Origin: an uncultured virus (IMG/VR IMGVR_UViG_3300047539_000004)
Taxonomy: Duplodnaviria; Heunggongvirae; Uroviricota; Caudoviricetes
Direction: 5' to 3' (one strand)
Virus record (IMG/VR): IMGVR_UViG_3300047539_000004
DNA length: 64,000 nucleotides
Position numbers and translations under genes: made by a program. Positions 1,478 to 64,000 of this stretch are shown here, in pieces (within the stretch, counting starts at the first letter, position 1; each line of letters opens with the position of its first letter). The notes beneath the pieces are model-generated. The model was not told the DNA's origin, made no database searches, and worked only from the letters and a program-made list of their open reading frames with translations.

Positions 1478-3046
1478 ATGACGTTTCTTTCTCAGTTTAA
1501 GGCCGCACGTCGAGTCAGTACCCCGCTAGTTGCCGTTCGCACATTCGATGCCAAAAGTACCGTTGACGCTGTAAAAACCCTATTCCCGCCAAAGAAAGAG
1601 GGCACCAAAGAAGTTTCAACTATCCCCCCCATGATACTGTGGGATTGCATTAACGGGTTCCGTTCCGTATCAGAGGCGGGAAAGGCAGCGCTTGCCAGCA
1701 TGATTGCATTGAGCCAGCTTGAGTCAGTGGAACTAACTATCCCTCTTGATTCGGCACTTCGTTTTATCACGAATTTTCCCGAGGATACGATTATCTTCAT
1801 TTCCAACATTCATCTCTTTTGGGGAGAAAAAGAGATAATCCAAGGGTTGTGGAATCTTCGTGATAGTTTCAAGGTTTCGGGCAATATGCTGGTAGCATTG
1901 ACGAATCAAGGTGCGATTCTTCCCATCGAATTGGCGCATGACTTTTTGGTATTGGATGAACCTTTGCCAACGTTGGAAGTACTTGAAGGTGTTGTCAAGA
2001 ATACGTTCGAGTATGCTAAGCTTGACGCCCCGTCGAAAGAGATTATGGAACAGGCAACCGGGGCTTTAATTGGTTTACCATACTTTCCCGCAGAACAGTC
2101 CACGGCAATGTGTCTCAACATTGCTAACGATAACGGAAAGGTTACGGGCACTCTTGACATAGAGGGCCTATGGGAACGTAAACGCCAAGCCATTAACGCA
2201 ACACAGGGGTTGTCAATTACCACTGGCAAAGAAAAGCTTGACGAGATAGGCGGATTAGAAACAGTCAAAACGTTTTTGCTTAGACTGTTAAACGGCAATG
2301 ACTCCCCACGTTGCATCATTTTCTCGGATGAAATAGAGAAAACTTTCGCCGGAACCGGAACCGATACATCAGGAGTAAAGACAGAATTAACCGGGTCCAT
2401 GCTTCAATGGACAACAAAACTTGATATGGCTGGAGTACTTGGAATTGGAGTACCGGGGGCGGGAAAGACCCAGATTATGAAAGCAATTGCGGCGGAAATG
2501 GGTATTCCGTTTATCACTTTCGATTTGGCTGGTATGCAAGGTTCGCTTGTAGGTCAATCGGGTGCCGCCCTACGTGCCGCACAGTCTATCATTGAAGCAG
2601 TTTCGGGTGGTCGCATCCTATGGGTGGCAACTTGCAATTCCATAGATGCTTTACCACCAGAATTGCAAGCCAGATTTAAGGATGGAACCTTTTTCTTCGA
2701 TGCGCCTACAATGGAAGAAAGAATTTCGATTTGGGCAATTCATCGCAAGGCTTTTAACATTCCTGAAACTGATACGTTGCCAATTGACAAGGGTTGGACG
2801 GGGCGTGAAATCAGGGAATGCTGTTCTAAAGCCTATCGCCTTAAGATGAATCTTTCGGAGGCGTCTCAGTACATCGTACCCGTTACGGTATCTAATGCGG
2901 GGATAATTGACAATCTCCGCCGTCAATCGTCTGGTAAGTATCTCTCAGCGTCTCACACTGGCATCTATCGCTATGAAGAAGAAGTAAAGCCATTTACCGG
3001 GCATGTTTTGAACGTTGAACAGGGGCGTAAAATGCGCGAGAGCTAG
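1478..3046 (+). CDS. Ycf46-like AAA+ ATPase with rearranged core
   Basis: IGGLETVK, Walker B IIFSDEIEK, Walker A GVPGAGKT, sensor WVATCN, LPPEL..RF, GWTGREI; degenerate N-terminal AAA domain. Confidence 0.85.
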   Translation: MTFLSQFKAARRVSTPLVAVRTFDAKSTVDAVKTLFPPKKEGTKEVSTIPPMILWDCINGFRSVSEAGKAALASMIALSQLESVELTIPLDSALRFITNFPEDTIIFISNIHLFWGEKEIIQGLWNLRDSFKVSGNMLVALTNQGAILPIELAHDFLVLDEPLPTLEVLEGVVKNTFEYAKLDAPSKEIMEQATGALIGLPYFPAEQSTAMCLNIANDNGKVTGTLDIEGLWERKRQAINATQGLSITTGKEKLDEIGGLETVKTFLLRLLNGNDSPRCIIFSDEIEKTFAGTGTDTSGVKTELTGSMLQWTTKLDMAGVLGIGVPGAGKTQIMKAIAAEMGIPFITFDLAGMQGSLVGQSGAALRAAQSIIEAVSGGRILWVATCNSIDALPPELQARFKDGTFFFDAPTMEERISIWAIHRKAFNIPETDTLPIDKGWTGREIRECCSKAYRLKMNLSEASQYIVPVTVSNAGIIDNLRRQSSGKYLSASHTGIYRYEEEVKPFTGHVLNVEQGRKMRES

Positions 3047-3141
3047 TACAGGGATTATGGGGGGGGGGGGGAGTATTGACAATCTCCCCTATTTCCTGTA
3101 ATGTATTTCACAGCAGTTAAACCAATGAAGGGAAGGGAAAT

Positions 3142-3567
3142 ATGTCAGAATATAGCGAAAACAAAACCCAGTTTAAGGATGCCGACACGCTGTGCGAGGC
3201 ATTGCACGAACTGGGTTTCGATGCGTCTATGATCGAACGGCATGAGAATGCAGTTTCGCTAGTAGACTTTCAAGGTCACAAAACACACTACTTGGATGAA
3301 AAGGGCGATAAAGCCGAAATAATCATCCGCAGAGTACATATCGGATCATCCGCCAATGACATAGGGTTTAAGAAAAACCCGGATGGGACAATCTCTGCGA
3401 TTATCTCAGCCTATGATTCGCACCGTTACGGTCAAGCTTGGCTTACTAAGCTTAAGGCAGCGTATTGCGAAAAGGGCTGTATGAAGCAAGGTAAAAAGAT
3501 GGGCCTTAGATTTGCGGGAAAGAAAATCGTAAATGGAAAGGTTCAATTGCAATTCCTGCAAGCCTAG
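3142..3567 (+). CDS. DUF1257 (Ycf35-like) family protein
   Basis: MS.Y...TQFKD...L..AL..LG and NDIGF....DG....I...YD pattern; usual neighbour of Ycf46 ATPases. Confidence 0.7.
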   Translation: MSEYSENKTQFKDADTLCEALHELGFDASMIERHENAVSLVDFQGHKTHYLDEKGDKAEIIIRRVHIGSSANDIGFKKNPDGTISAIISAYDSHRYGQAWLTKLKAAYCEKGCMKQGKKMGLRFAGKKIVNGKVQLQFLQA

Positions 3568-3615
3568 AACCTAGGCTCAAACACTCAACTTTTACCAGAA
3601 AAGAGGAATCGAAAA

Positions 3616-3810
3616 ATGGCGAAAATCGTAACCGTTACCATCAATCCTTCAGACGCATCATTTACCGTAGACAATACGGGTTTTCAAGGTAAGGGATGTG
3701 CCGCGATAATCAAGGCTTTCGCGGAAATTGGCGAAATCACCAAAGAAGTACATAAGCCGGAATACGACCGTCCAGTCAAAACAACCAATACGGTCACGGC
3801 AGGTAGGTAA
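3616..3810 (+). CDS. DUF2997 family protein
   Basis: I.V.I......V...GF.G..C.....KPEY pattern; synteny with DUF1257. Confidence 0.7.
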   Translation: MAKIVTVTINPSDASFTVDNTGFQGKGCAAIIKAFAEIGEITKEVHKPEYDRPVKTTNTVTAGR

Positions 3811-12826: not shown

Positions 12827-12911
12827 GAGGGTATGGCGGAACTGGCAGACGCGATTGATTTAAGATCAATTGTCGAAAGGCGTGGGGGTTCAAGTCCCTC
12901 TACCCGCACCA
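12827..12911 (+). tRNA. tRNA-Leu(TAA)
   Basis: cloverleaf, ATTGA-TT-TAA-GA-TCAAT, long variable arm, GTTCAAGTC, encoded CCA. Confidence 0.92.
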
Positions 12912-17001: not shown

Positions 17002-17381
17002 TGAGAGCCTTCCTCACAACGTTGTTAATCTTGGGCGGTCTGACTATGTTCCCTCAGACCGTTCACGCCGCTAAGAAACCAGTGAAAGTATCCGCTGAAC
17101 AACAGATAGACAAACAGTACGTAGTAACTTTACTTACTATGCGTGGGTACGAGAATACAGATTGCACCGACGCAGACTTTGTCGATGTTGCTCATAACTT
17201 CAGCGTAGCATTGAACGACTTAGGCAACATGTACAACGATCTACCGACTACATCTGTGGATTGGTGGAAGGATACATTTAAGTCTATCAATCTAATCACG
17301 GAGGCTAACTCAGCGATTGCGAAACAGGCCGAGTGCCAACGTGATGCAACCGATGGTAAGAACAAATCAGCAAAAATGTAA
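17001..17381 (+). CDS. secreted protein (signal peptide)
   Basis: MRAFLTTLLILGGLTMFPQTVHA/A. Confidence 0.6.
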   Translation: MRAFLTTLLILGGLTMFPQTVHAAKKPVKVSAEQQIDKQYVVTLLTMRGYENTDCTDADFVDVAHNFSVALNDLGNMYNDLPTTSVDWWKDTFKSINLITEANSAIAKQAECQRDATDGKNKSAKM

Positions 17382-17391
17382 AGGAGAAGGT

Positions 17392-18420
17392 ATGCTACTA
17401 TCAGAGTATTTGGATACAGACAAACTCGGACAGCACATTAACAGTGGTTTGGTACATGCATCTACCCACCCTGATAAGAACATACCTTTGGCTATTTACA
17501 CCTACACAAGAAAGGCGTTTTATACTGGTGTTTGGGACGATGTGATTAGAAAGTGTCGCGGTCTGATCGTAGATACTGAGACAGATTTCGTAGTATCTCG
17601 CCCGTTCCCTAAATTCTTTGGCATTAACGATGAAGCGCACCCGGAGACATTAGAGTGTAACCTTCCCATGCAGGAGCCAGAGATTAGCGAAAAGATCAAT
17701 GGCAATCTTGGCATCTTTTGGAAGTACGGTATACACTGGGGCATTGCCTCTAAGAGTTCCTTTACTTCTGACCATGCTAAGTGGGCAACCGAGTGGATGG
17801 AAGATCACGTAGAACATGATGGTAAGTTTATTTATCCACTAGGCTATACGCCACTGTTTGAAATGGTCTGTCAAGATATTCAGCTACATGCAGTAAAGTA
17901 TGACAGAAACGAGTTGGTACTTATCTCTTTGATTAAGAATGAAACCGGGGAAGAGGCCAGTCCGATTACCAATGCGTTCTATGCAAGCAACAACGGACTC
18001 AATTCTCCAGAAATACACTACAAGAAGTTAGCAGACGTGATTAACGAAGACAGGGAAGGGCATGAAGGATATGTGCTAACGTACAGACACTACAAGAACC
18101 CTCCTCTGAAGATCAAGATTAAGCATCCGTGGTTCCTGCAAGCTAGACAGGAGTTCTACGCGGCACAGAAGGATGTTACACATCTGGCATCTGAAGAGTT
18201 CAAAGGCACTCTGTACAAAGAAATCCTTTCGAAGTCAAGGCAAATTGTACTCGATGCATTAGCGTGTTGTTCAACACGTAAAGAGTACGCCGAGTGGTTT
18301 AACAAAGATGAAAACAAGCTGTACGCTACCATTTGCTTTGCAATGCTAGATGAAGATGGAAGCCACAAAGAAGCCATCAACAAGTTGATTGGCATTATGT
18401 CTGACATGGAGGTTAGATGA
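17392..18420 (+). CDS. T4 Rnl1-like RNA ligase
   Basis: CRGLI...RPF.KFF, motif I EKINGNLG, FE, EGYVL, KIK. Confidence 0.88.
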   Translation: MLLSEYLDTDKLGQHINSGLVHASTHPDKNIPLAIYTYTRKAFYTGVWDDVIRKCRGLIVDTETDFVVSRPFPKFFGINDEAHPETLECNLPMQEPEISEKINGNLGIFWKYGIHWGIASKSSFTSDHAKWATEWMEDHVEHDGKFIYPLGYTPLFEMVCQDIQLHAVKYDRNELVLISLIKNETGEEASPITNAFYASNNGLNSPEIHYKKLADVINEDREGHEGYVLTYRHYKNPPLKIKIKHPWFLQARQEFYAAQKDVTHLASEEFKGTLYKEILSKSRQIVLDALACCSTRKEYAEWFNKDENKLYATICFAMLDEDGSHKEAINKLIGIMSDMEVR

Positions 18421-30010: not shown

Positions 30011-30341
30011 CACATATCAAGAACAAGCGTGGGAAACGGCACAGTATCCGCAATCAGGCGCTAACATGGTATACCCGGCTCTAGGACTAGCAGGAGAAGC
30101 CGGTGAAGTTGCAGAGAAGGTTAAGAAAGCATGGCGTAATCAGGGCATTACAAATGGCGCGTTAGTTTCTGATTCAGTTGCAATCGAAATAGCCAAAGAG
30201 TTATCAGACGTATTGTGGTATGTATCCGCGTTAGCTAAGGAACTAAACATCCCGTTGGCAGATGTTGCTCAAATGAATCTGGACAAGTTGCATGACAGAA
30301 ACAAGAGGGGCGTGATTAAGTCGGAAGGAGACAACAGATAG
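29997..30341 (+). CDS. MazG-like nucleotide pyrophosphohydrolase
   Basis: YQ..A..TA.YP...YPALGLAGEAGEVAEKVKK...KEL.DVLWY...N..KL..R..RG.I...GD.R. Confidence 0.9.
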   Translation: MLNFDTYQEQAWETAQYPQSGANMVYPALGLAGEAGEVAEKVKKAWRNQGITNGALVSDSVAIEIAKELSDVLWYVSALAKELNIPLADVAQMNLDKLHDRNKRGVIKSEGDNR

Positions 30342-30422
30342 GGTGTGTAGCTCAACGCATAGAGCATTGATCCTCTAACTAAAGGATCAACGATAAAGGT
30401 TGGACTCCTTCCGCACCCTCCA
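30341..30422 (+). tRNA. atypical tRNA-like gene (8-bp anticodon stem, 8-nt loop)
   Basis: acceptor GGGTGTG/CGCACCC plus T-CCA; D arm GCTC/GAGC; T loop TTGGACT; anticodon arm TTGATCCT-CTAACTAA-AGGATCAA. Confidence 0.65.
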
Positions 30423-30573: not shown

Positions 30574-33216
30574 TTAAGAGCCACACGTACCGCCTTTGGT
30601 TATGTCACAAATATCTGTACTCTCGACAAAAATTTGACCTTCGTGCTTCATGGCGGTTTTGTATGAAACTGTTGTTAGTGGCTGTCCTGATCTTGCACCA
30701 TCTGGGTAACAAGTAATCCCTCTTAACTTTGGAAGATACTTCATTAACATGTGTCCAAAGTCTTTCACTGTATCTTCGTTGTTTTTCTCTGTTCCCCATG
30801 CTGGAAGGTTAATAGTGCTGCTTATCCCATGATCGACATACTGTTGCAGCCATGCTTGGAAGGCAACACGCCTTTCCGGGTCAATCGAGTAAGCATCTTC
30901 AATATCTTCTGGCTTTACCCCTTCGTTCTCTATCAAACGTTTTGCAACAGTCTCTACAACGTATTGGTGTTCCCATGTGGTCTTGTTTAAATAGCGTCTC
31001 TTGAAGGCCACACAGAAGATTGGTTCACATCCGGTAGTTGTTTCAGCTACGATGCCAATTGTCCCGGTAGGAGCAATCGCCCTAGTCTTGACTGATTTGG
31101 ATAGGTTCCACTGATCCTCATACTGGTGGGCAAACTCTGTGCTGCGTTCGTAAATCTTCATGTACTCGGCAAGGTTATCATCGGGACCGTATAGTTTACC
31201 ATTATTGATTAGCCATTCATGTAGGCCCATTAGTCCTAACCCTAAGCGGCGGTTCTTCTCTCTGATTACCTTTACCTTAGCATAAGGCACATCTGAATAT
31301 TCAGTCCCGGCTACCAACATTGCTGTAGAGACTTTTACACAAACTTCCATATCTTCAAGAGTCTTTATACGGGCCATGTTTAAACTAGCAAGATTACAAA
31401 TGTCTGAGTCGTCATAGCTAGTCACTTCTGTACAGTTCCCAATTATAACTCCTTCTGCTTGAAATGAGTGTTCTTCTACTTTGACATCAGCACAATACAC
31501 AGGTTCTACTCCATCCTCAACTACCGATAAAACCTTCACCAAAGAATCTCTATACGCGGTATATCCTTCTAATTCTGGTTTTAGACGAATGGTAGGCATA
31601 AAGTTTGCTGCCTTTTGTGTGTATTCTGATGCAACGACTAACTGATATGTTTGCGCTTTTCCGTAAGTCGAGTGCCCAGTTTTTGATACATGGGACAGTA
31701 TTCCATATTGTTCAAATAATCTAGATACATTTTGTAAAAAACCTTCATGTTTGGAAGAAAGACGTAGACGTTTTTGTGTAGATTCCCAGTTTCCATCAGA
31801 ATCAAACAATCCCGCCAGAAAGCTTCCAGCTTGGTTATAAGACAGACTGTAAACTTCAATAGGAAACACATCTTTGCTTCTATCTTTCCAATACTCATCA
31901 ACTTTAAAATATGCCCTTTTATACCCACGTCCATCTTCTTCATTAATAGAAGACAGTAGGAAATGTTGACGAAAAGGTTCAATACATTTTTTAGATTCAT
32001 CTGTGCAAAAAGTTGCTTCCGCATTTCCGTTTACAGCAAATGTACCATCTCCATATACATACCCAAGAACATATAAATTGTTATCTATTTTTCTATTGGA
32101 AACAGCTTCTGGAAGAGACACATGAAGAATATCTCCATCTTCTAATTCATTTGCTGGTACCTTATCAATTGACTTTAATTTTCGCTTTGCACCTTTTCCT
32201 TGATACCGTTCTACTAAAAAGGGATGCCTCTTGTCACAGCGAATTGATCTTCCTCCCGTCATGTTGACTTGTACAATTTCCCCAAGGTCGCTTGTTTTAG
32301 TAAACACAACATCAGGTGCCCACTGTTTACCTGTCCAAACTTCTAAAGGTTTTCCAATAATATCCTTCACAGGTTGGTATCCATATTCCGTTAGAACTAA
32401 TGTATCAGCACAGATAGGAGCGTTTCGTAATGTTTCACCCTCATTTTCTCCTACATCAATGCTAAAACCCGGCTCACCCTTCTTCAACATCTGGTAAACG
32501 GTTTCCCAATATACTTGTTGGGCTAAACTATGCTTTGGATGTTTAGGGTTATTGTATGCTTTAAAGAATTCATCGTCAAGTCTTACCGAAACATTAGTCC
32601 CATCTAACGTAGCTGGAAAGTTGAAATCCTTGGCTTTCATGGCTCTGACTTCGTGCGACCAGTCTTTTATGTGGATAAACTCCAGAATATCGGCATGATC
32701 CCACCCCAGACCGGCCCAAATCGCGCTTCTACGGCTCCCGCCCTGCATAATGAACCTTCCCGCCTCGTTTGTCATTGCCATAAGAGCCAGCGGCCCTGTG
32801 GCCTCACCGCCAGTCCTTTTAATCAGGCTTCCTTTGGGTCTGATGTTCGAATACTCGTTGCCGATTCCTGCCCCGCTCATAAGCGCCATAGAGGAATCGT
32901 GCATTGTTTGCGCCCAACCTTCACGGCTGTCTTCAGGACGCATTAGAAGGCAATTCTGTACTTGGTGGTAATCTCTTCCGGCTGCGTATAGATAACGGCC
33001 TCCGGGGATGATCTGTCTAATGGTGATTCTATAGATAAGTTCGTCTACAAGTTCCTTTGGAGCATTGACTGTCTTAAATACATTTACAGCAACTCTTTTG
33101 GCTATCTGTGGCCATGTCTGAAGATCGTTTATGGTTGGATACTTCGCATATTTTTGGTTGATTACAGTAGTTGCTAGACTACCAAACTCCAGTAACTTTG
33201 GGTCTATTACCCGCAT
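30574..33216 (-). CDS. nrdJ: class II (AdoCbl-dependent) ribonucleotide reductase with intein
   Basis: PGGRYLY, NC, GGSRRSA, N-A-[intein]-C-T-E, CNL, RRLGLG, AIAPTGT, ISSTINLP, YPDG.R; no nrdB seen in the window. Confidence 0.88.
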   Translation of the reverse strand: MRVIDPKLLEFGSLATTVINQKYAKYPTINDLQTWPQIAKRVAVNVFKTVNAPKELVDELIYRITIRQIIPGGRYLYAAGRDYHQVQNCLLMRPEDSREGWAQTMHDSSMALMSGAGIGNEYSNIRPKGSLIKRTGGEATGPLALMAMTNEAGRFIMQGGSRRSAIWAGLGWDHADILEFIHIKDWSHEVRAMKAKDFNFPATLDGTNVSVRLDDEFFKAYNNPKHPKHSLAQQVYWETVYQMLKKGEPGFSIDVGENEGETLRNAPICADTLVLTEYGYQPVKDIIGKPLEVWTGKQWAPDVVFTKTSDLGEIVQVNMTGGRSIRCDKRHPFLVERYQGKGAKRKLKSIDKVPANELEDGDILHVSLPEAVSNRKIDNNLYVLGYVYGDGTFAVNGNAEATFCTDESKKCIEPFRQHFLLSSINEEDGRGYKRAYFKVDEYWKDRSKDVFPIEVYSLSYNQAGSFLAGLFDSDGNWESTQKRLRLSSKHEGFLQNVSRLFEQYGILSHVSKTGHSTYGKAQTYQLVVASEYTQKAANFMPTIRLKPELEGYTAYRDSLVKVLSVVEDGVEPVYCADVKVEEHSFQAEGVIIGNCTEVTSYDDSDICNLASLNMARIKTLEDMEVCVKVSTAMLVAGTEYSDVPYAKVKVIREKNRRLGLGLMGLHEWLINNGKLYGPDDNLAEYMKIYERSTEFAHQYEDQWNLSKSVKTRAIAPTGTIGIVAETTTGCEPIFCVAFKRRYLNKTTWEHQYVVETVAKRLIENEGVKPEDIEDAYSIDPERRVAFQAWLQQYVDHGISSTINLPAWGTEKNNEDTVKDFGHMLMKYLPKLRGITCYPDGARSGQPLTTVSYKTAMKHEGQIFVESTDICDITKGGTCGS
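31435..32418 (-). mobile_element. intein with LAGLIDADG homing endonuclease (328 aa, starts with Pro)
   Basis: PICADTLVLT...CDKRHPF...GYVYGDG...LAGLFDSDG...VYCADV...HSF...GVIIGN/C; AT-richer than the exteins. Confidence 0.88.
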
Positions 33217-33703: not shown

Positions 33704-33778
33704 TGGCATGAGAAGTAGGATTTGAACCCACACTGCAAGACTTTGGAGGTCTGCCGTCTACCGTTGACTTATTCTCAT
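33704..33778 (-). tRNA. tRNA-Trp(CCA)
   Basis: AGAC-CT-CCA-AA-GTCT, GGTTCAAATCC, encoded CCA. Confidence 0.85.
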
Positions 33779-33779
33779 G

Positions 33780-33855
33780 TGGAGCTAGCGGAGAGGGTCG
33801 AACTCCCGACCTTTTGATTACAGATCAATTGCTCTACCAACTGAGCTACGCTAGC
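33780..33855 (-). tRNA. tRNA-Thr(TGT) with C33
   Basis: GCTAGCG/CGCTAGC, TTGA-TC-TGT-AA-TCAA, GTTCGA, CCA. Confidence 0.8.
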
Positions 33856-33948
33856 AAATATCGCGGGTGGATTTGTCTCACGACTGGGCTCCACCCTGCA
33901 CCCCTTTGCTACCTTTTACGCTCTTACAGCCGGATAGCAAAGCTTGTC

Positions 33949-34185
33949 TTACCTATTTAAAGTTGTGCGGTCTGTGTCGAAGTGGGTAAGTGAGCGAAAA
34001 CTTCCCCCCTGCCCCAACCAGAGTAACAATACTAACATTGCCGTCCAAATCATTTGCTGCGCAATCCAAATCAACTTAGCGTTATTTGGTCCATTAGGGG
34101 GCACGCCCGGTCCTAATATCGCATACAATACCAAGCCGACAATCAAAACGATGAATACAGTTAACAAATACTCTCCAGTGTTCAT
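33949..34185 (-). CDS. small two-TM membrane protein
   Basis: two hydrophobic helices; lies within the tRNA cluster. Confidence 0.5.
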   Translation of the reverse strand: MNTGEYLLTVFIVLIVGLVLYAILGPGVPPNGPNNAKLIWIAQQMIWTAMLVLLLWLGQGGSFRSLTHFDTDRTTLNR

Positions 34186-34204
34186 AGTTCAAGTGTTTCT
34201 ATCT

Positions 34205-34279
34205 TGGCACAGGGCCAGAGACTCGAACTCTGACAACAGGCTCCAAAGGCCCGTATTCTTCCAATTAAATTAGCCCTGA
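34205..34279 (-). tRNA. tRNA-Gln(TTG)
   Basis: CGGGC-CT-TTG-GA-GCCTG, GTTCGAGTC, G-CCA. Confidence 0.85.
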
Positions 34280-34351
34280 ACAAGAGCGCTGCCGTCATAC
34301 GTTAAGACCCCACGTGTGAAATAAGGCCATACGGCGTACAACAGCAAAATT

Positions 34352-34425
34352 TGGTGGACCTGTAGGGATTCAAACCCTAGCTCAAACCATGCAAAGGTCT
34401 TGTGCTCTCATTACACCACAGGCCC
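34352..34425 (-). tRNA. tRNA-Ala(TGC)
   Basis: G3:U70 pair, AGACC-TT-TGC-AT-GGTTT, A-CCA. Confidence 0.88.
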
Positions 34426-60844: not shown

Positions 60845-61091
60845 AGCCCTCCAGCTATAAATACTGTCTGTTACTCGCTAATGCTTGTACAATGCAATTT
60901 ACCTAACGGTAACAGTGACTTCAAGCGGCTGCGCGGCCTAACTGAAGTCAAATATCTGCATACTTCCTTAAGAATTAGTAATCCACCTTTTCTTAATTCC
61001 CTACGCAGAAGAAACTTGTGGGAGTGTGTATGCCGGGGTAGGATATTCGGTCCCGCGCCTCAACTCCCTGCCCTCTGGCTTCAAGGGATTT

Positions 61092-61388
61092 TTATTCAGA
61101 ACTGTTGCCTTGGCTTATGGCTTGCTGCTTACCCAATGCTTCGAGTGCTAGCGCGACGATAGAATCATAATCCAATGGACCGCAATCTAACTCGCCAAGC
61201 GTCCACAGTTTTTCCAAAGCACGTTCGGATTCAGTCTCAGTTTCGCACAACTCTTGAAAGTTACTGTCTGCCTGATCCTGAGAGTTTTTTAGAGAGCGGC
61301 GTAGTTGCTTGTTGACACTACGCTGCACTCTGTTGTTTTTACGTAACACGAATACCTCTTCCGTCTCTTCCTGATACGTGCGTTCCAT
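61092..61388 (-). CDS. hypothetical protein
   Basis: AGGAG RBS; open frame. Confidence 0.55.
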   Translation of the reverse strand: MERTYQEETEEVFVLRKNNRVQRSVNKQLRRSLKNSQDQADSNFQELCETETESERALEKLWTLGELDCGPLDYDSIVALALEALGKQQAISQGNSSE

Positions 61389-61400
61389 TGTGTTCTCCTA

Positions 61401-62336
61401 TTAAGCAAGTACCTCAACGTTGACTGAAGCGTAAATCTTATTGATTGGCAAGCCATTCATAGGATTCCCGCTAGAAACAACATCACCAACACTGTTGTTA
61501 AATGTTGGGAAAGATACTTCAACTTCCACATGCCCAAGGGCCACTGCTGTAATCAAACCATCGGCACCAACTGTAGCAACTGCGGTGCTTGTCCCGGAAG
61601 GCTGATAGGTGTTACCTGTCAAGGTCTTTGAAGGATAAGCCACATAAGTTAGCTTGTTAGTTCCGCTCTCTTCTGAAGTTGCTGTTGCTGCATGTGTCTC
61701 AGCAATAGCATCAACGTTAACAAGAGTTAGGGTTGTTGCAGAAGATGCGGTAGCAAGGAAGGTTCCGTTGTTTGTGGGGTTAGTTACGAACCCGGCAATT
61801 GTGAAATCCTGTCCTGCAAGAGCATTAGAACCACCACCTGTGATTGTGCCTGTGTAAACTGCCACACCTTCGTCTGATGCGGCTGTAGCTGCATGTGTTT
61901 CTGCAACTGCTAGGTCCACAAGAGTCAAAGTTGTTGCAGAAGATGCTGTGCAACCAAACACGCCATTATTGGCCGCGTTTGTAAACCCGGCAACGGTAAA
62001 TGTATCTCCCGCAAATGCGTTAGAACCGCCGCCTGTAATTGTTCCGGTGAATACTGAATGAATTCCATCAGTAGAAGCAGCAACTGAAGTCAGCACTAAT
62101 ACACCGACTGAAGAAGCAGCAACTGAAGTTAGAGCCAATGCTGAACCTGTGTCAACCACCGCGCCTGAAACATCGGCAACTACGGGGTCAAGTTGAAAAG
62201 TCTCTGGGTAACCACCCACACCAGTCAATGACAACTTAACACCATTGTACCCCGGAGTTGTTTTGCCGGGATGAATGTTGCCAGTTGACAAAATCTGTGC
62301 TGCTACGCCAAGACCTGTAGTAGAATTAAATGCCAT
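61401..62336 (-). CDS. capsid decoration / Ig-like (Big_2) virion protein with an internal ~70-aa repeat
   Basis: VATV.ADGLITAVA.G; duplicated TGTITGGGSNA.AG..FT.AGF.N..NNG.F..TASSATTLTLV...AETHAATA. Confidence 0.7.
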   Translation of the reverse strand: MAFNSTTGLGVAAQILSTGNIHPGKTTPGYNGVKLSLTGVGGYPETFQLDPVVADVSGAVVDTGSALALTSVAASSVGVLVLTSVAASTDGIHSVFTGTITGGGSNAFAGDTFTVAGFTNAANNGVFGCTASSATTLTLVDLAVAETHAATAASDEGVAVYTGTITGGGSNALAGQDFTIAGFVTNPTNNGTFLATASSATTLTLVNVDAIAETHAATATSEESGTNKLTYVAYPSKTLTGNTYQPSGTSTAVATVGADGLITAVALGHVEVEVSFPTFNNSVGDVVSSGNPMNGLPINKIYASVNVEVLA

Positions 62337-62356
62337 TTATTTTCTCCATAGACGTC

Positions 62357-62381
62357 AAAGGAGAGTTTTTAGGCTCTCCTT
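62357..62381 (-). terminator. terminator-like hairpin after the capsid gene
   Basis: AAGGAGAG-cctaaaaa-CTCTCCTT. Confidence 0.55.
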
Positions 62382-62394
62382 CGATCAATTTGAA

Positions 62395-63773
62395 TTAGCT
62401 GATTGCGCTTGCGGCATCAATCTCACGGATTCTGATTGTTGTATCCTATTTGTTATCAATAACTTGCGTCATTGAGTTAGGTCATTTCTGCCTAACTCTC
62501 ATGGTTTTTGTTCCCATGAGAACGGACTATCGCATCACCTTTCGGTGCCCTCTCACTTAGTCTCTCACGCTGCCTTTCGGCTTGCGCCCTGTTAGCCATT
62601 TCAGCTTCCAAGTCAATCAGAGTGGGTTTATTACTCGCCCCAATACAATGTTTAGGGCCGAGCGAAGTTGTAAAATGAACTCTATCAATTTGTTATAATA
62701 TTTCCCAAATCTTTGGCTAAAGTATATATTTCTTCAAGCCTTTGTAAAACAACTTCTTGTGGAAGCTGTTTACCGTATGCGCGAGTCATGCTAGCTTCCA
62801 TCCAAGCTTTTAAAGTAAAGCTAGATTTGCTAGTCTGACATGATAAGAATCTGGTTTCTTCGTGTGTAGTGCAGCAAGGAACTAAGTTACCTTTTACATG
62901 GCCTATAGAGGAATTTAATCTATCTAATCCCCATACTTTACCATCTTCAGGCTTTCGTCCACAATAAGCACACACTCTAGGGTTTCCTTCACTATCTAAA
63001 TAGTAAGGAATAGCTTCAACAGGACTTGTAAATCCAAATTCCCGTTTTTCAAGTTTATCAGTCCACTTCATACTAGCGTAACGTTTCCGTATGCTCTTAT
63101 AATAACCGTTCGACATGGATTTAGCTTTTAAAACGCCTTCCATACCTTCCCGGTTAAAGTGAACTAGTTTACCTTGTTTTCTCCATTTCGCAGCCCATTC
63201 TTGAATAGTACCGATAGTTACGCCGGTTCTAGTTTGAATCTCTTTTTGACTACGATTTTTAGAAAGAAGTTCGAATACTTTATCTTCAGTTTCTTTATCA
63301 ATTTTTATCATGCATACCTTAGGAGATATTAGATTGAGCATTTCTGTCAATCTCTTATAGTTTTATTCCTATAAGATCGGACTATTACTTCAGCCGTTTG
63401 GCTGTCTTCTTGTTTAGTCTCTCACGGCGAAAAGAATTTGTCAAGTCTTTTCTTCCGCCTCGTTGCCGTTTCAGGTTTCGAGTCGATTAAAGAAGATTAC
63501 TGATATCCTGTTTAAAGGGTCAGCCCATATATGATATTCTTATATCATGTAATGTTTAGGAAGTCCATCCGGGGATTAGCCCTTCGGGATCGGCAACTGT
63601 CGGTTCCTGTTATTTAGTTGCCTACAACTTCTGAGAACGCCAAACCTTTTAAAATCAATAACTTACCAGCGTTCTGAACGATATTGCACTTGATGTTGCT
63701 CCATTCACCGTCACCAAAACCTGTATCGCCTTGCGCACCGAGTTTGATAGAGAAAATACCATCACGCCCGAAG
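62395..63773 (-). CDS. 3' part of the putative major capsid protein gene; exons 63668-63773, 63558-63606, 62654-62685, 62395-62445
   Basis: joined exons read in one frame FGRDGIFSIKLGAQGDTGFGDGEWSNIKCNIVQNA/EPTVADPEGLIPGWTS-Y-RVHFTTSLGP/DTTIRIREIDAASAIS*; upstream of the decoration protein; resembles N4-gp56-type capsid C-termini. Confidence 0.72.
62446..62653 (-). mobile_element. group I intron, 208 nt, no ORF
   Basis: exon U then intron AAACAUU...G; IGS UUGUAUU-GGGGCGAG pairs both exons; core GUGAGAGACUAA and GAUAGUCCG. Confidence 0.9.
62685..63350 (-). CDS. intron-encoded HTH plus HNH/His-Me homing endonuclease
   Basis: N-terminal HTH-like segment; CAYCG...GLDR.NSS.GH..GN.VPCC; the true start may be the downstream ATG (MIKID). 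Confidence 0.8.
   Translation of the reverse strand: MTEMLNLISPKVCMIKIDKETEDKVFELLSKNRSQKEIQTRTGVTIGTIQEWAAKWRKQGKLVHFNREGMEGVLKAKSMSNGYYKSIRKRYASMKWTDKLEKREFGFTSPVEAIPYYLDSEGNPRVCAYCGRKPEDGKVWGLDRLNSSIGHVKGNLVPCCTTHEETRFLSCQTSKSSFTLKAWMEASMTRAYGKQLPQEVVLQRLEEIYTLAKDLGNIITN
62686..63557 (-). mobile_element. group I intron, 872 nt, with endonuclease ORF
   Basis: splits a Tyr codon (U/AU); starts AAACAUU and ends G; core GUGAGAGACUAA and AAUAGUCCG. Confidence 0.88.
63607..63667 (-). mobile_element. 61-nt coreless group I-like mini-intron
   Basis: precise removal restores the frame; U/..G/ boundaries; P1 and P10 guide; ends UAACAG. Confidence 0.7.
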
Positions 63774-64000
63774 CTTGGATTGTTACTCGCTTTTTATAGC
63801 GGAGCAAGTCATTTCTGCTTGCTTCTTGGAGTTAAATTCTGTTATTAATTTGCAATGCTCTAGGAATGTAGTTTGTGAGTAGTTACTTTTGAATGAATTG
63901 CACACTCCGCAGCAAGCTACTGTATTCTCAGTTTGATAACCTTTTGCATTGTCTACTCTATCTACACCGTTATAGGTGTAACTATTTTGACTACCATAAC
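63774..64000 (-). mobile_element. 3' end of a further group I intron (truncated by the window edge)
   Basis: GCAAGCAGAAAUGACUUGC hairpin homologous to those in the other introns; ends UAACAAUCCAAG. Confidence 0.75.
63783..64000 (-). CDS. C-terminus of an intron-encoded HNH endonuclease (partial)
   Basis: YNGVDRVDNAKGYQTENTVACCGVCNSFKS. Confidence 0.8.
   Translation of the reverse strand, partial: YGSQNSYTYNGVDRVDNAKGYQTENTVACCGVCNSFKSNYSQTTFLEHCKLITEFNSKKQAEMTCSAIKSE

Follow-up and report, generated by a model that had tools for sequence, protein, structure and literature searches.

How can an intron that carries the guide of a group I ribozyme, with none of its catalytic core, be removed from a messenger RNA? 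The question is raised by a 61-nucleotide (nt) insert in the major head protein gene of an uncultured virus of the Caudoviricetes (IMG/VR record IMGVR_UViG_3300047539_000004), of which we analysed a stretch of 64,000 nt, referred to as the window herein. The gene is on the minus strand, with its 3′ part inside the window and the rest beyond the window end, and the insert occupies positions 63607-63667 (-). A sequence-only reading of the window had proposed that the insert is a coreless mini-intron, spliced in trans by the core of a neighbouring intron. We found that the 61 nt are a real intron of the head protein mRNA, precisely removed in vivo, and that they represent one of 13 distinct mini-introns (minis) of 32-61 nt at seven sites of the capsid gene in 10 related contigs. 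We consider it probable, at about 0.6, that the minis are group I-derived "substrate-only" elements, spliced by the core of the adjacent full-size intron, the next one downstream.

The closest annotated relative of the interrupted gene is gp6 of Tunturiibacter phage Tunturi_3 (PP885686.1), which is uninterrupted and ends ..CNIVQNAEPTVADPEGLIPGWTSYRVHFTTSLGPDTTIRIREIDAASAIS. The insert splits the head protein gene between A300 and E301 of Tunturi_3 gp6. As had been anticipated, excision of exactly 63607-63667 gives ..VQNA/EPTV.., the same as in the uninterrupted gp6, and retention of the insert shifts the frame and then leads to a stop. By this comparison the boundary is ambiguous by 1 nt (G/G), and its placement after U, ending in G, is the one chosen in the sequence-only reading. 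The stretch was found in 20 public runs, six of which are peat metatranscriptomes, and contigs of the RNA runs X15, X16 and X17 and of the DNA run X10 were placed on positions 1200-5129 of L090, an independent public metagenome record that matches window 61063-64000 (2938 nt) at 100% identity and continues for a further 2191 nt. An exact 61-nt skip was present in contigs of all three RNA runs, which come from three studies, possibly of one campaign, and in 0/1 DNA runs. The joint (L090 2543->2605, 1 nt ambiguous) equals window 63607-63667 and had a depth of 253 in X15, 384.5 in X16 and 152.9 in X17. Skips of 208, 872 and 935 nt, which correspond to introns C, B and A of the same gene, were likewise found in 3/3 RNA runs and were absent from X10, and a 764-nt X16 contig had C, B, the mini-intron and A all spliced out together. 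In one X15 contig the 3′ end of intron A was joined to a position 3 nt inside its 5′ end ("goes back 932"; L090 about 2712-3643), a junction that is that of a truncated intron circle; truncated circles are typical of group I introns. An assembly deletion within a longer intron, which had been named as a way in which the proposal could fail, was not found: L090 is identical, and X10, which is not flagged as a source of the window, spans the insert gap-free (its record 4 covers L090 2460-2644, insert included). Nor does the capsid gene appear to be dead. Because codons downstream of the insert compare with those of Tunturi_3 as 8 identical, 18 synonymous and 0 non-synonymous, the interrupted gene is, judging from its codons, alive and under selection.

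From its upstream end downwards, the locus is laid out as follows.

63774..64000 (-): intron A, 3′ part; 935 nt in L090, exceeding the window; nhmmer match to the 3′ part of the profile
63668..63773 (-): exon of 106 nt, FGRDGIFSIKLGAQGDTGFGDGEWSNIKCNIVQNA; tblastn to P0001 and RNA joints
63668..63675 (-): 5′-exon strand of P1, AGAACGCU, its last nt being the splice-site U
63607..63667 (-): 61-nt mini-intron between codons A300 and E301; gp6 homology and RNA skip in X15, X16 and X17
63642..63646 (-): P10 strand of the guide, GGUUU, abutting the P1 strand on its 5′ side
63634..63641 (-): P1 strand of the internal guide, GGCGUUCU; 8/8 pairing with exon 63668-63675
63616..63622 (-): tail segment GGCAACU, which can form an optional extra helix with 3′ exon +9..+15 (63592-63598)
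63607..63607 (-): terminal G of the mini-intron (omega-G position)
63602..63606 (-): 3′-exon strand of P10, GAACC
63558..63606 (-): exon of 49 nt, EPTVADPEGLIPGWTS plus 1 nt, from the mini-intron to intron B; homology and RNA joints
62686..63557 (-): intron B, 872 nt, full-size group I-type; RNA joint, core about 63331-63498
62654..62685 (-): exon of 32 nt, (Y)RVHFTTSLGP; homology and RNA joints
62446..62653 (-): intron C, 208 nt, full-size group I-type without an open reading frame (ORF); RNA joint and covarying core
62395..62445 (-): last exon, DTTIRIREIDAASAIS plus stop; homology to gp6

Two further introns lie upstream in L090, after codons A91 and D22, and the former (L090:4168-4793 (-), 626 nt) was also skipped in X16. 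At L090 about 1534, an X10 contig has a 22-nt insertion in intron C, a case of strain-level variation within an intron.

The internal guide proposed for the insert held in both of its parts. The guide strand at 63634-63641 pairs at 8/8 positions with the last 8 nt of the exon (63668-63675), with a U.G pair at the splice site (P1), and the 5 nt directly 5′ of it (63642-63646) are complementary at 5/5 positions to the beginning of the 3′ exon (63602-63606; P10). Together they form a complete P10+P1 guide, with which compensatory changes in relatives agree, and this contiguous helix of 13 base pairs (bp) was equalled by only 4/20000 shuffles of the insert. The minimum free energy (MFE) fold of the insert with its flanks contained P1, with a stability no greater than that of shuffles (z -0.43). 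Also claimed had been a P9-like hairpin, AGUUG/CAACU; this is present in the window, but is not conserved, as by eye a 3-bp remnant was left in two relatives and the hairpin was absent in the others. The tail hairpin of the window mini as a relic of P5 found no support, with 287/300 shuffles aligning equally well. The stated absence of a core from the insert was upheld: a full-intron nhmmer profile located three cores in the window, all of them outside the insert. The 61-nt insert has the substrate-side features of a group I intron and lacks the ribozyme-side one.

Relatives were sought in IMG/VR and JGI metagenomes using protein-level anchors on both sides of a variable gap, two guide-based scans added further minis, and a tblastn census of 95 capsid loci, several of which are the same contig fetched twice, revealed further short inserts. 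The resulting minis, by position in the coding sequence (CDS), are given below.

CDS nt 900, after A300: window 61 nt, L139 51 nt, L087 52 nt, L088 48 nt, L176/L213 43 nt, L082 39 nt
CDS nt 906, after P302: L027 35 nt, L083 34 nt
CDS nt 911, in the V304 codon: L085 32 nt
CDS nt 940, in the W314 codon: L067 36 nt
CDS nt 60, after Y20: L087 42 nt
CDS nt 66, after D22: L088 53 nt
CDS nt 161, in the M54 codon: L085 47 nt

All 13 are built alike. In each, the U that ends the homology-defined 5′ exon pairs with the guide's first G, the intron itself ends in G (with the boundary set by homology, and for the window also by RNA joints), and the P10 strand (4-8 nt) directly adjoins the P1 strand (6-8 nt), for a total of 11-16 bp. 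Across the 13 minis the observed guides were equalled by 0-50 of 20000 shuffles. The six minis at nt 900 (site 1) have the same P1 guide, and their P10 strand tracks synonymous or amino-acid changes in the 3′ exon (GGUUU/GAACC, GGCUU/GAGCC, GGUGU/GCACC and GGCUC/GAGCC), with P10 extended to 8 bp in the L139 mini; across the seven sites the guide differs, matching each exon context. Since the five minis that are in frame nonetheless hold stop codons, all 13 must be removed. Downstream codons in carriers of minis again compare with those of Tunturi_3 as identical, synonymous and non-synonymous in the numbers 12/24/0 (L027), 18/20/0 (L139) and 11/25/0 (L083), and the higher non-synonymous counts of L082 and L088 come from alignments running into introns. 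Relatives had been suggested to hold full-length or mini introns at the insert site of the window: further minis were found there, while no full-size intron was found at this site in viral_contigs, where a context-anchored pattern gave four matches, all of them minis. A loose pattern, CAGAACGCT..GGCGTTCT, matched at least 118 stretches, mostly by chance, with four in capsid context. Among the loci examined, 55 anchor matches at sites 1-3 were uninterrupted, and 73 of the 95 loci in the capsid census were without introns.

The catalytic competence of the neighbouring introns is pertinent to the fate of the minis. Rfam gave no group I match in the window at gathering threshold or at E<=1, only six tRNAs, and intron C alone was unmatched in Rfam 15 even at E<=10. 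This silence is uninformative for the minis, since full-size introns of the same lineage were also missed; the full-size introns are a lineage missed by current covariance models. Their core was tested by aligning 13 ORF-less full-size introns on a hand-drawn structure of P3, P4, P5, P6, P7, P8, P9 and P9.1, including the P3/P7 pseudoknot. In the drawn core 94.3% of cells pair, versus 34-43% with the partner slid, and 29/42 core pairs have changes on both sides (compensatory), which 0/500 shuffles match; the structure was drawn from one of the aligned sequences and is thereby somewhat favoured, but the compensatory counts are large. By this covariation, the full-size neighbours are group I-type ribozyme folds. 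The three cores that the nhmmer profile found in the window are all in the head protein gene, with an E value of 2.8e-27 for that of intron B. Full-size introns span 196-1264 nt and have P10 abutting P1, begin after U and end in G at 31/34 junctions, the three misses being poorly resolved boundaries. Two of them carry endonuclease-like ORFs: that of intron B (62685-63350 (-)) encodes an HTH domain and Cys/His motifs and is HTH/HNH-like, and that of intron A (63783-63998 (-)) is the C-terminus of an HNH-like endonuclease. The intron B ORF ends in a stop codon that overlaps the 3′ splice site. About 4 kb upstream of uninterrupted capsid genes, further cores of this family were seen (L015-L018 positions 7-108; L037 positions 1-61), which places the family in other genes of related phages as well.

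In the minis, 15-39 nt are left after the guide (27 nt in the window mini), and among the 13 tails we found no shared k-mer beyond chance, the best 4-mer occurring in 6/13 and being matched by shuffles in 187/500. Because the tails are this short and have no common motif, we conclude that the minis have no ribozyme core. In some minis the tail can pair with the 3′ exon, as with GGCAACU in the window (RNAduplex -11.6 kcal/mol, reached by 52/1000 shuffles), L088 (13/1000) and L085 (28/1000; overall 13-99/1000), and in others such a helix is absent, which is suggestive of an optional element. Group I chemistry requires a G-binding site in P7, and as the minis are without a core that provides it, an outside catalyst is needed.

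Where that catalyst might reside is suggested by the surroundings of the minis. For every mini, a full-size intron lies downstream, separated from it by 27-107 nt of exon (49 nt in the window). Such a neighbour at <=36 codons downstream was present for 12/12 minis versus 2/27 full-size introns (Fisher 2e-8; 7e-6 with one mini per site), and for the 13th mini, in the L176 contig, it lies 27 nt downstream; equally close upstream, a full-size intron was present for only 3/12 minis. All 10 contigs with minis also hold full-size introns, five contigs hold full-size introns only, and none holds minis only. The guides of the minis are longer than those of full-size introns, with a median contiguous guide of 13 bp versus 9 bp (p 2e-5) and a P10 of 5 bp versus 3 bp (p 8e-5), as would be expected of a substrate whose helix has to be held in the absence of a core. 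In other contigs, full-size introns occupy three of the seven mini sites: nt 66 (L139, L013, L023, L080), nt 161 (L087) and nt 60 (L085). Two of these contigs form a reciprocal pair: at nt 60 the intron is full-size in L085 and a mini in L087, whereas at nt 161 it is a mini in L085 and full-size in L087. In addition, the L088 mini at nt 66 aligns with the J3/4-P6 region of full-size introns (6/300 shuffles). The downstream rule, the co-occurrence, the longer guides and the shared sites argue for a helper on the same transcript.

We therefore favour a mechanism in which the mini would supply the 5′ splice site, after the U of the U.G pair that closes P1, and the P10 strand abutting the P1 strand would line up both exon ends on one guide. 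The terminal G is retained, and the whole catalytic core, P3-P9 with the G-binding P7 included, has been lost. Both transesterifications would be carried out by the folded core of a full-size family member within the transcript, most likely intron B 49 nt downstream, which would dock the preformed P1/P10 helix and terminal G of the mini instead of its own. Full-size introns would turn into minis when the core is lost, and minis would persist only where a helper follows closely; the downstream bias could be accounted for if an upstream helper would fold and leave before the mini was transcribed. What the sequence-only reading called "in trans" may in truth be "in cis", with the next intron of the transcript as the catalyst. 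Whether phage capsid genes host a two-tier intron system, of autonomous full-size group I introns and non-autonomous guide-only minis spliced by a neighbour's core, is a broader claim that we advance tentatively and at somewhat less than even odds. Minis may also colonise new sites by way of their long P1/P10 guides, which could explain the three mini sites within 11 nt (CDS nt 900, 906 and 911). Such colonisation could likewise explain a likeness seen by eye: the 61-nt mini and the 626-nt intron after A91 share 12 identical nt in their guide regions, and the 5′ exons of the two are alike (GAGTACGCT versus CAGAACGCT). This likeness may be a trace of ectopic insertion at a look-alike site, or of convergence forced by the exons.

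Several points weigh against splicing of the minis by the core next to them. Homology of the tail to full-size introns was significant in only 1/13 minis, and inspection by eye revealed no mini-helper pairing by which the substrate might be recruited. Relatedness among the contigs, and the intron-rich lineages that they share, make the Fisher tests overstate independence, and introns cluster in conserved stretches, which could partly produce the proximity. Of one set of 263 relatives the best 80 were kept, a choice that favours uninterrupted genes. The RNA evidence is of assembled contigs, which report presence, with splicing order, efficiency and intermediates invisible. To our knowledge, only in vitro work has shown natural group I ribozymes to act on a P1 helix other than their own.

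Other catalysts were also considered. The core of a full-size intron could act without being adjacent, with any excised intron of the family or a host ribozyme working in trans and the proximity being a by-product of insertion hot spots. Intron RNA does persist, with intron-containing contigs at a depth of 36-70 in addition to the intron A circle, the same intron family is present in other genes of related phages (L015-L018, L037), and introns cluster in the C-terminal conserved region. However, a hot spot would not readily give a close downstream neighbour to 12/12 minis and 2/27 full-size introns with no upstream enrichment (3/12), and the three N-terminal minis, which were found regardless of their neighbours, obey the same downstream rule; we regard a catalyst in trans as unlikely. 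Protein machinery, in which an endonuclease cuts both sites and an RNA ligase seals the exons with the P10-P1 guide as a mere splint, seems to us rather improbable. The window does encode a protein of the T4-type RNA ligase 1 family at 17317-18420 (+) (PF09511, E 1.8e-19), the contiguous guide would present the exon ends as a nicked duplex, and the degenerate group I introns of lichen fungi are thought to need unknown machinery (PMC8527467). The ligase gene is, however, found in 3/3 relatives without minis and is missing from L176, a contig with a mini and a completeness rating of 100%. Moreover, a nuclease and a ligase have no need of the U.G pair and final G seen in 13/13 minis or of the guide layout of full-size introns, features that fit group I chemistry, and they leave the constant full-size intron within 107 nt unexplained.

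Self-splicing of the mini, through an unknown minimal fold or with help from the exons, would make use of the fact that every substrate element is present and that some minis can form the tail/3′-exon helix. Set against tails of 15-39 nt without a common motif, a smallest mini of 32 nt, a fold z score of -0.43 and the need of established group I chemistry for a G-binding site in P7, it is very improbable. Least credible is the possibility that no RNA splicing takes place and that the joined form stems from intron-less variant DNA in the RNA libraries or from ribosomal bypass. RNA libraries can contain DNA, and intron-less relatives exist (73/95 loci), but the joined form is absent from X10, it is 3-10 times as deep in the RNA runs as the contigs that bear the intron, and its exons match the window letter for letter. 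In T4 gene 60, a 50-nt gap flanked by matched codons stays in the mRNA and is bypassed by the ribosome. That gap and the window insert are both short and frame-breaking and lie in an essential phage gene from which full protein is still made; unlike the gap, the insert is absent from the RNA itself and has no take-off and landing match, with GCU as the codon before the gap and CAG as its last triplet.

Introns of other classes were examined and rejected. A spliceosomal GU-AG intron can be drawn in the insert (GUAAGU..CAG), but its GU..AG is 60 nt and leaves the frame unrestored, whereas the RNA removes 61 nt, and by eye the other 12 minis do not start with GU. Group II and group III introns have a consensus of GUGYG at the 5′ end and AY at the 3′ end, and a domain VI with a bulged A. 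By eye the minis have no common 5′ GUGYG, and 13/13 end in G, not AY. A bulge-helix-bulge intron was set aside on a look by eye at the MFE fold only.

Elsewhere in the window, a ribonucleotide reductase large subunit encoded at 30574-33216 (-) carries a LAGLIDADG domain in mid-protein, probably an intein, which would add one more selfish element to this phage. Six tRNA genes are located at 12827-12908, 30341-30419 and 33707-34425, four of them forming one cluster.

Self-splicing phage group I introns include T4 td and the three introns of Twort orf142. The minis are like phage group I introns and introns A, B and C in the U.G pair in P1, the P10 abutting P1, the terminal G and the precise ligation of exons in vivo, and they share with full-size introns the preference for UG or AG at the 3′ end. 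They are unlike full-size introns in having no P3-P9 core and no G-binding site, in a length of 32-61 versus 196-1264 nt and in a longer guide. In vitro, in work of Cech, Doudna and Szostak, a ribozyme core is said to dock a P1 duplex that is not covalently attached to it. Such engineered trans-acting ribozymes share the chemistry proposed for the minis, but are laboratory constructs, whereas the minis would provide a natural instance, under selection in an essential gene. The nearest named kind is the degenerate group I introns of lichen-fungal rDNA, which average 233 nt, keep a group I-like fold, do not self-splice in vitro, are fully removed in vivo and were shortened by loss of catalytic parts (PMC8527467). 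Both are group I-derived, shortened and deprived of catalytic parts; the lichen introns are in nuclear rRNA and presumably rely on protein machinery, while the phage minis have no fold, interrupt a protein-coding gene and have intact ribozymes alongside. The closest analogy in logic is offered by the group III or mini group II introns of euglenoid chloroplasts, which are about 100 nt long, with most catalytic domains gone and trans catalysis suspected (PMC8393795). Both they and the minis are streamlined derivatives amid full-size relatives, but the euglenoid introns use group II chemistry, with a branch-point A and domain VI, and the minis bear group I hallmarks. No coreless group I mini-introns of phages or bacteria were found in the full-text literature searched, from which subscription journals are mostly missing, and a 2025 phage-intron survey contained none of the size or trans terms sought.

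Taken together, these data indicate that an intron can apparently shed its whole ribozyme and yet splice if the guide presenting both exon ends remains, which separates the roles of "substrate" and "catalyst" in group I splicing. The minis offer a test case from nature for the action of a ribozyme on another intron, so far a matter of in vitro work or of analogy with group II and III introns. If true, this would be the first natural group I ribozyme that processes another intron, and it would give group I introns a counterpart to the division into catalyst and substrate introns that has been invoked for group II and the spliceosome. The minis are invisible to Rfam and intron finders, and their presence makes essential genes look frameshifted or truncated; a single capsid gene family supplies 13 examples. 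Where a mini is in frame and contains a stop, the gene would be annotated as split. If helper dependence holds, a guide-only excisable cassette of 32 nt would constitute a very small conditional splicing module. The helper rule, by which a full-size intron follows downstream at no more than about 100 nt, suggests that one selfish element depends on another within a single gene.

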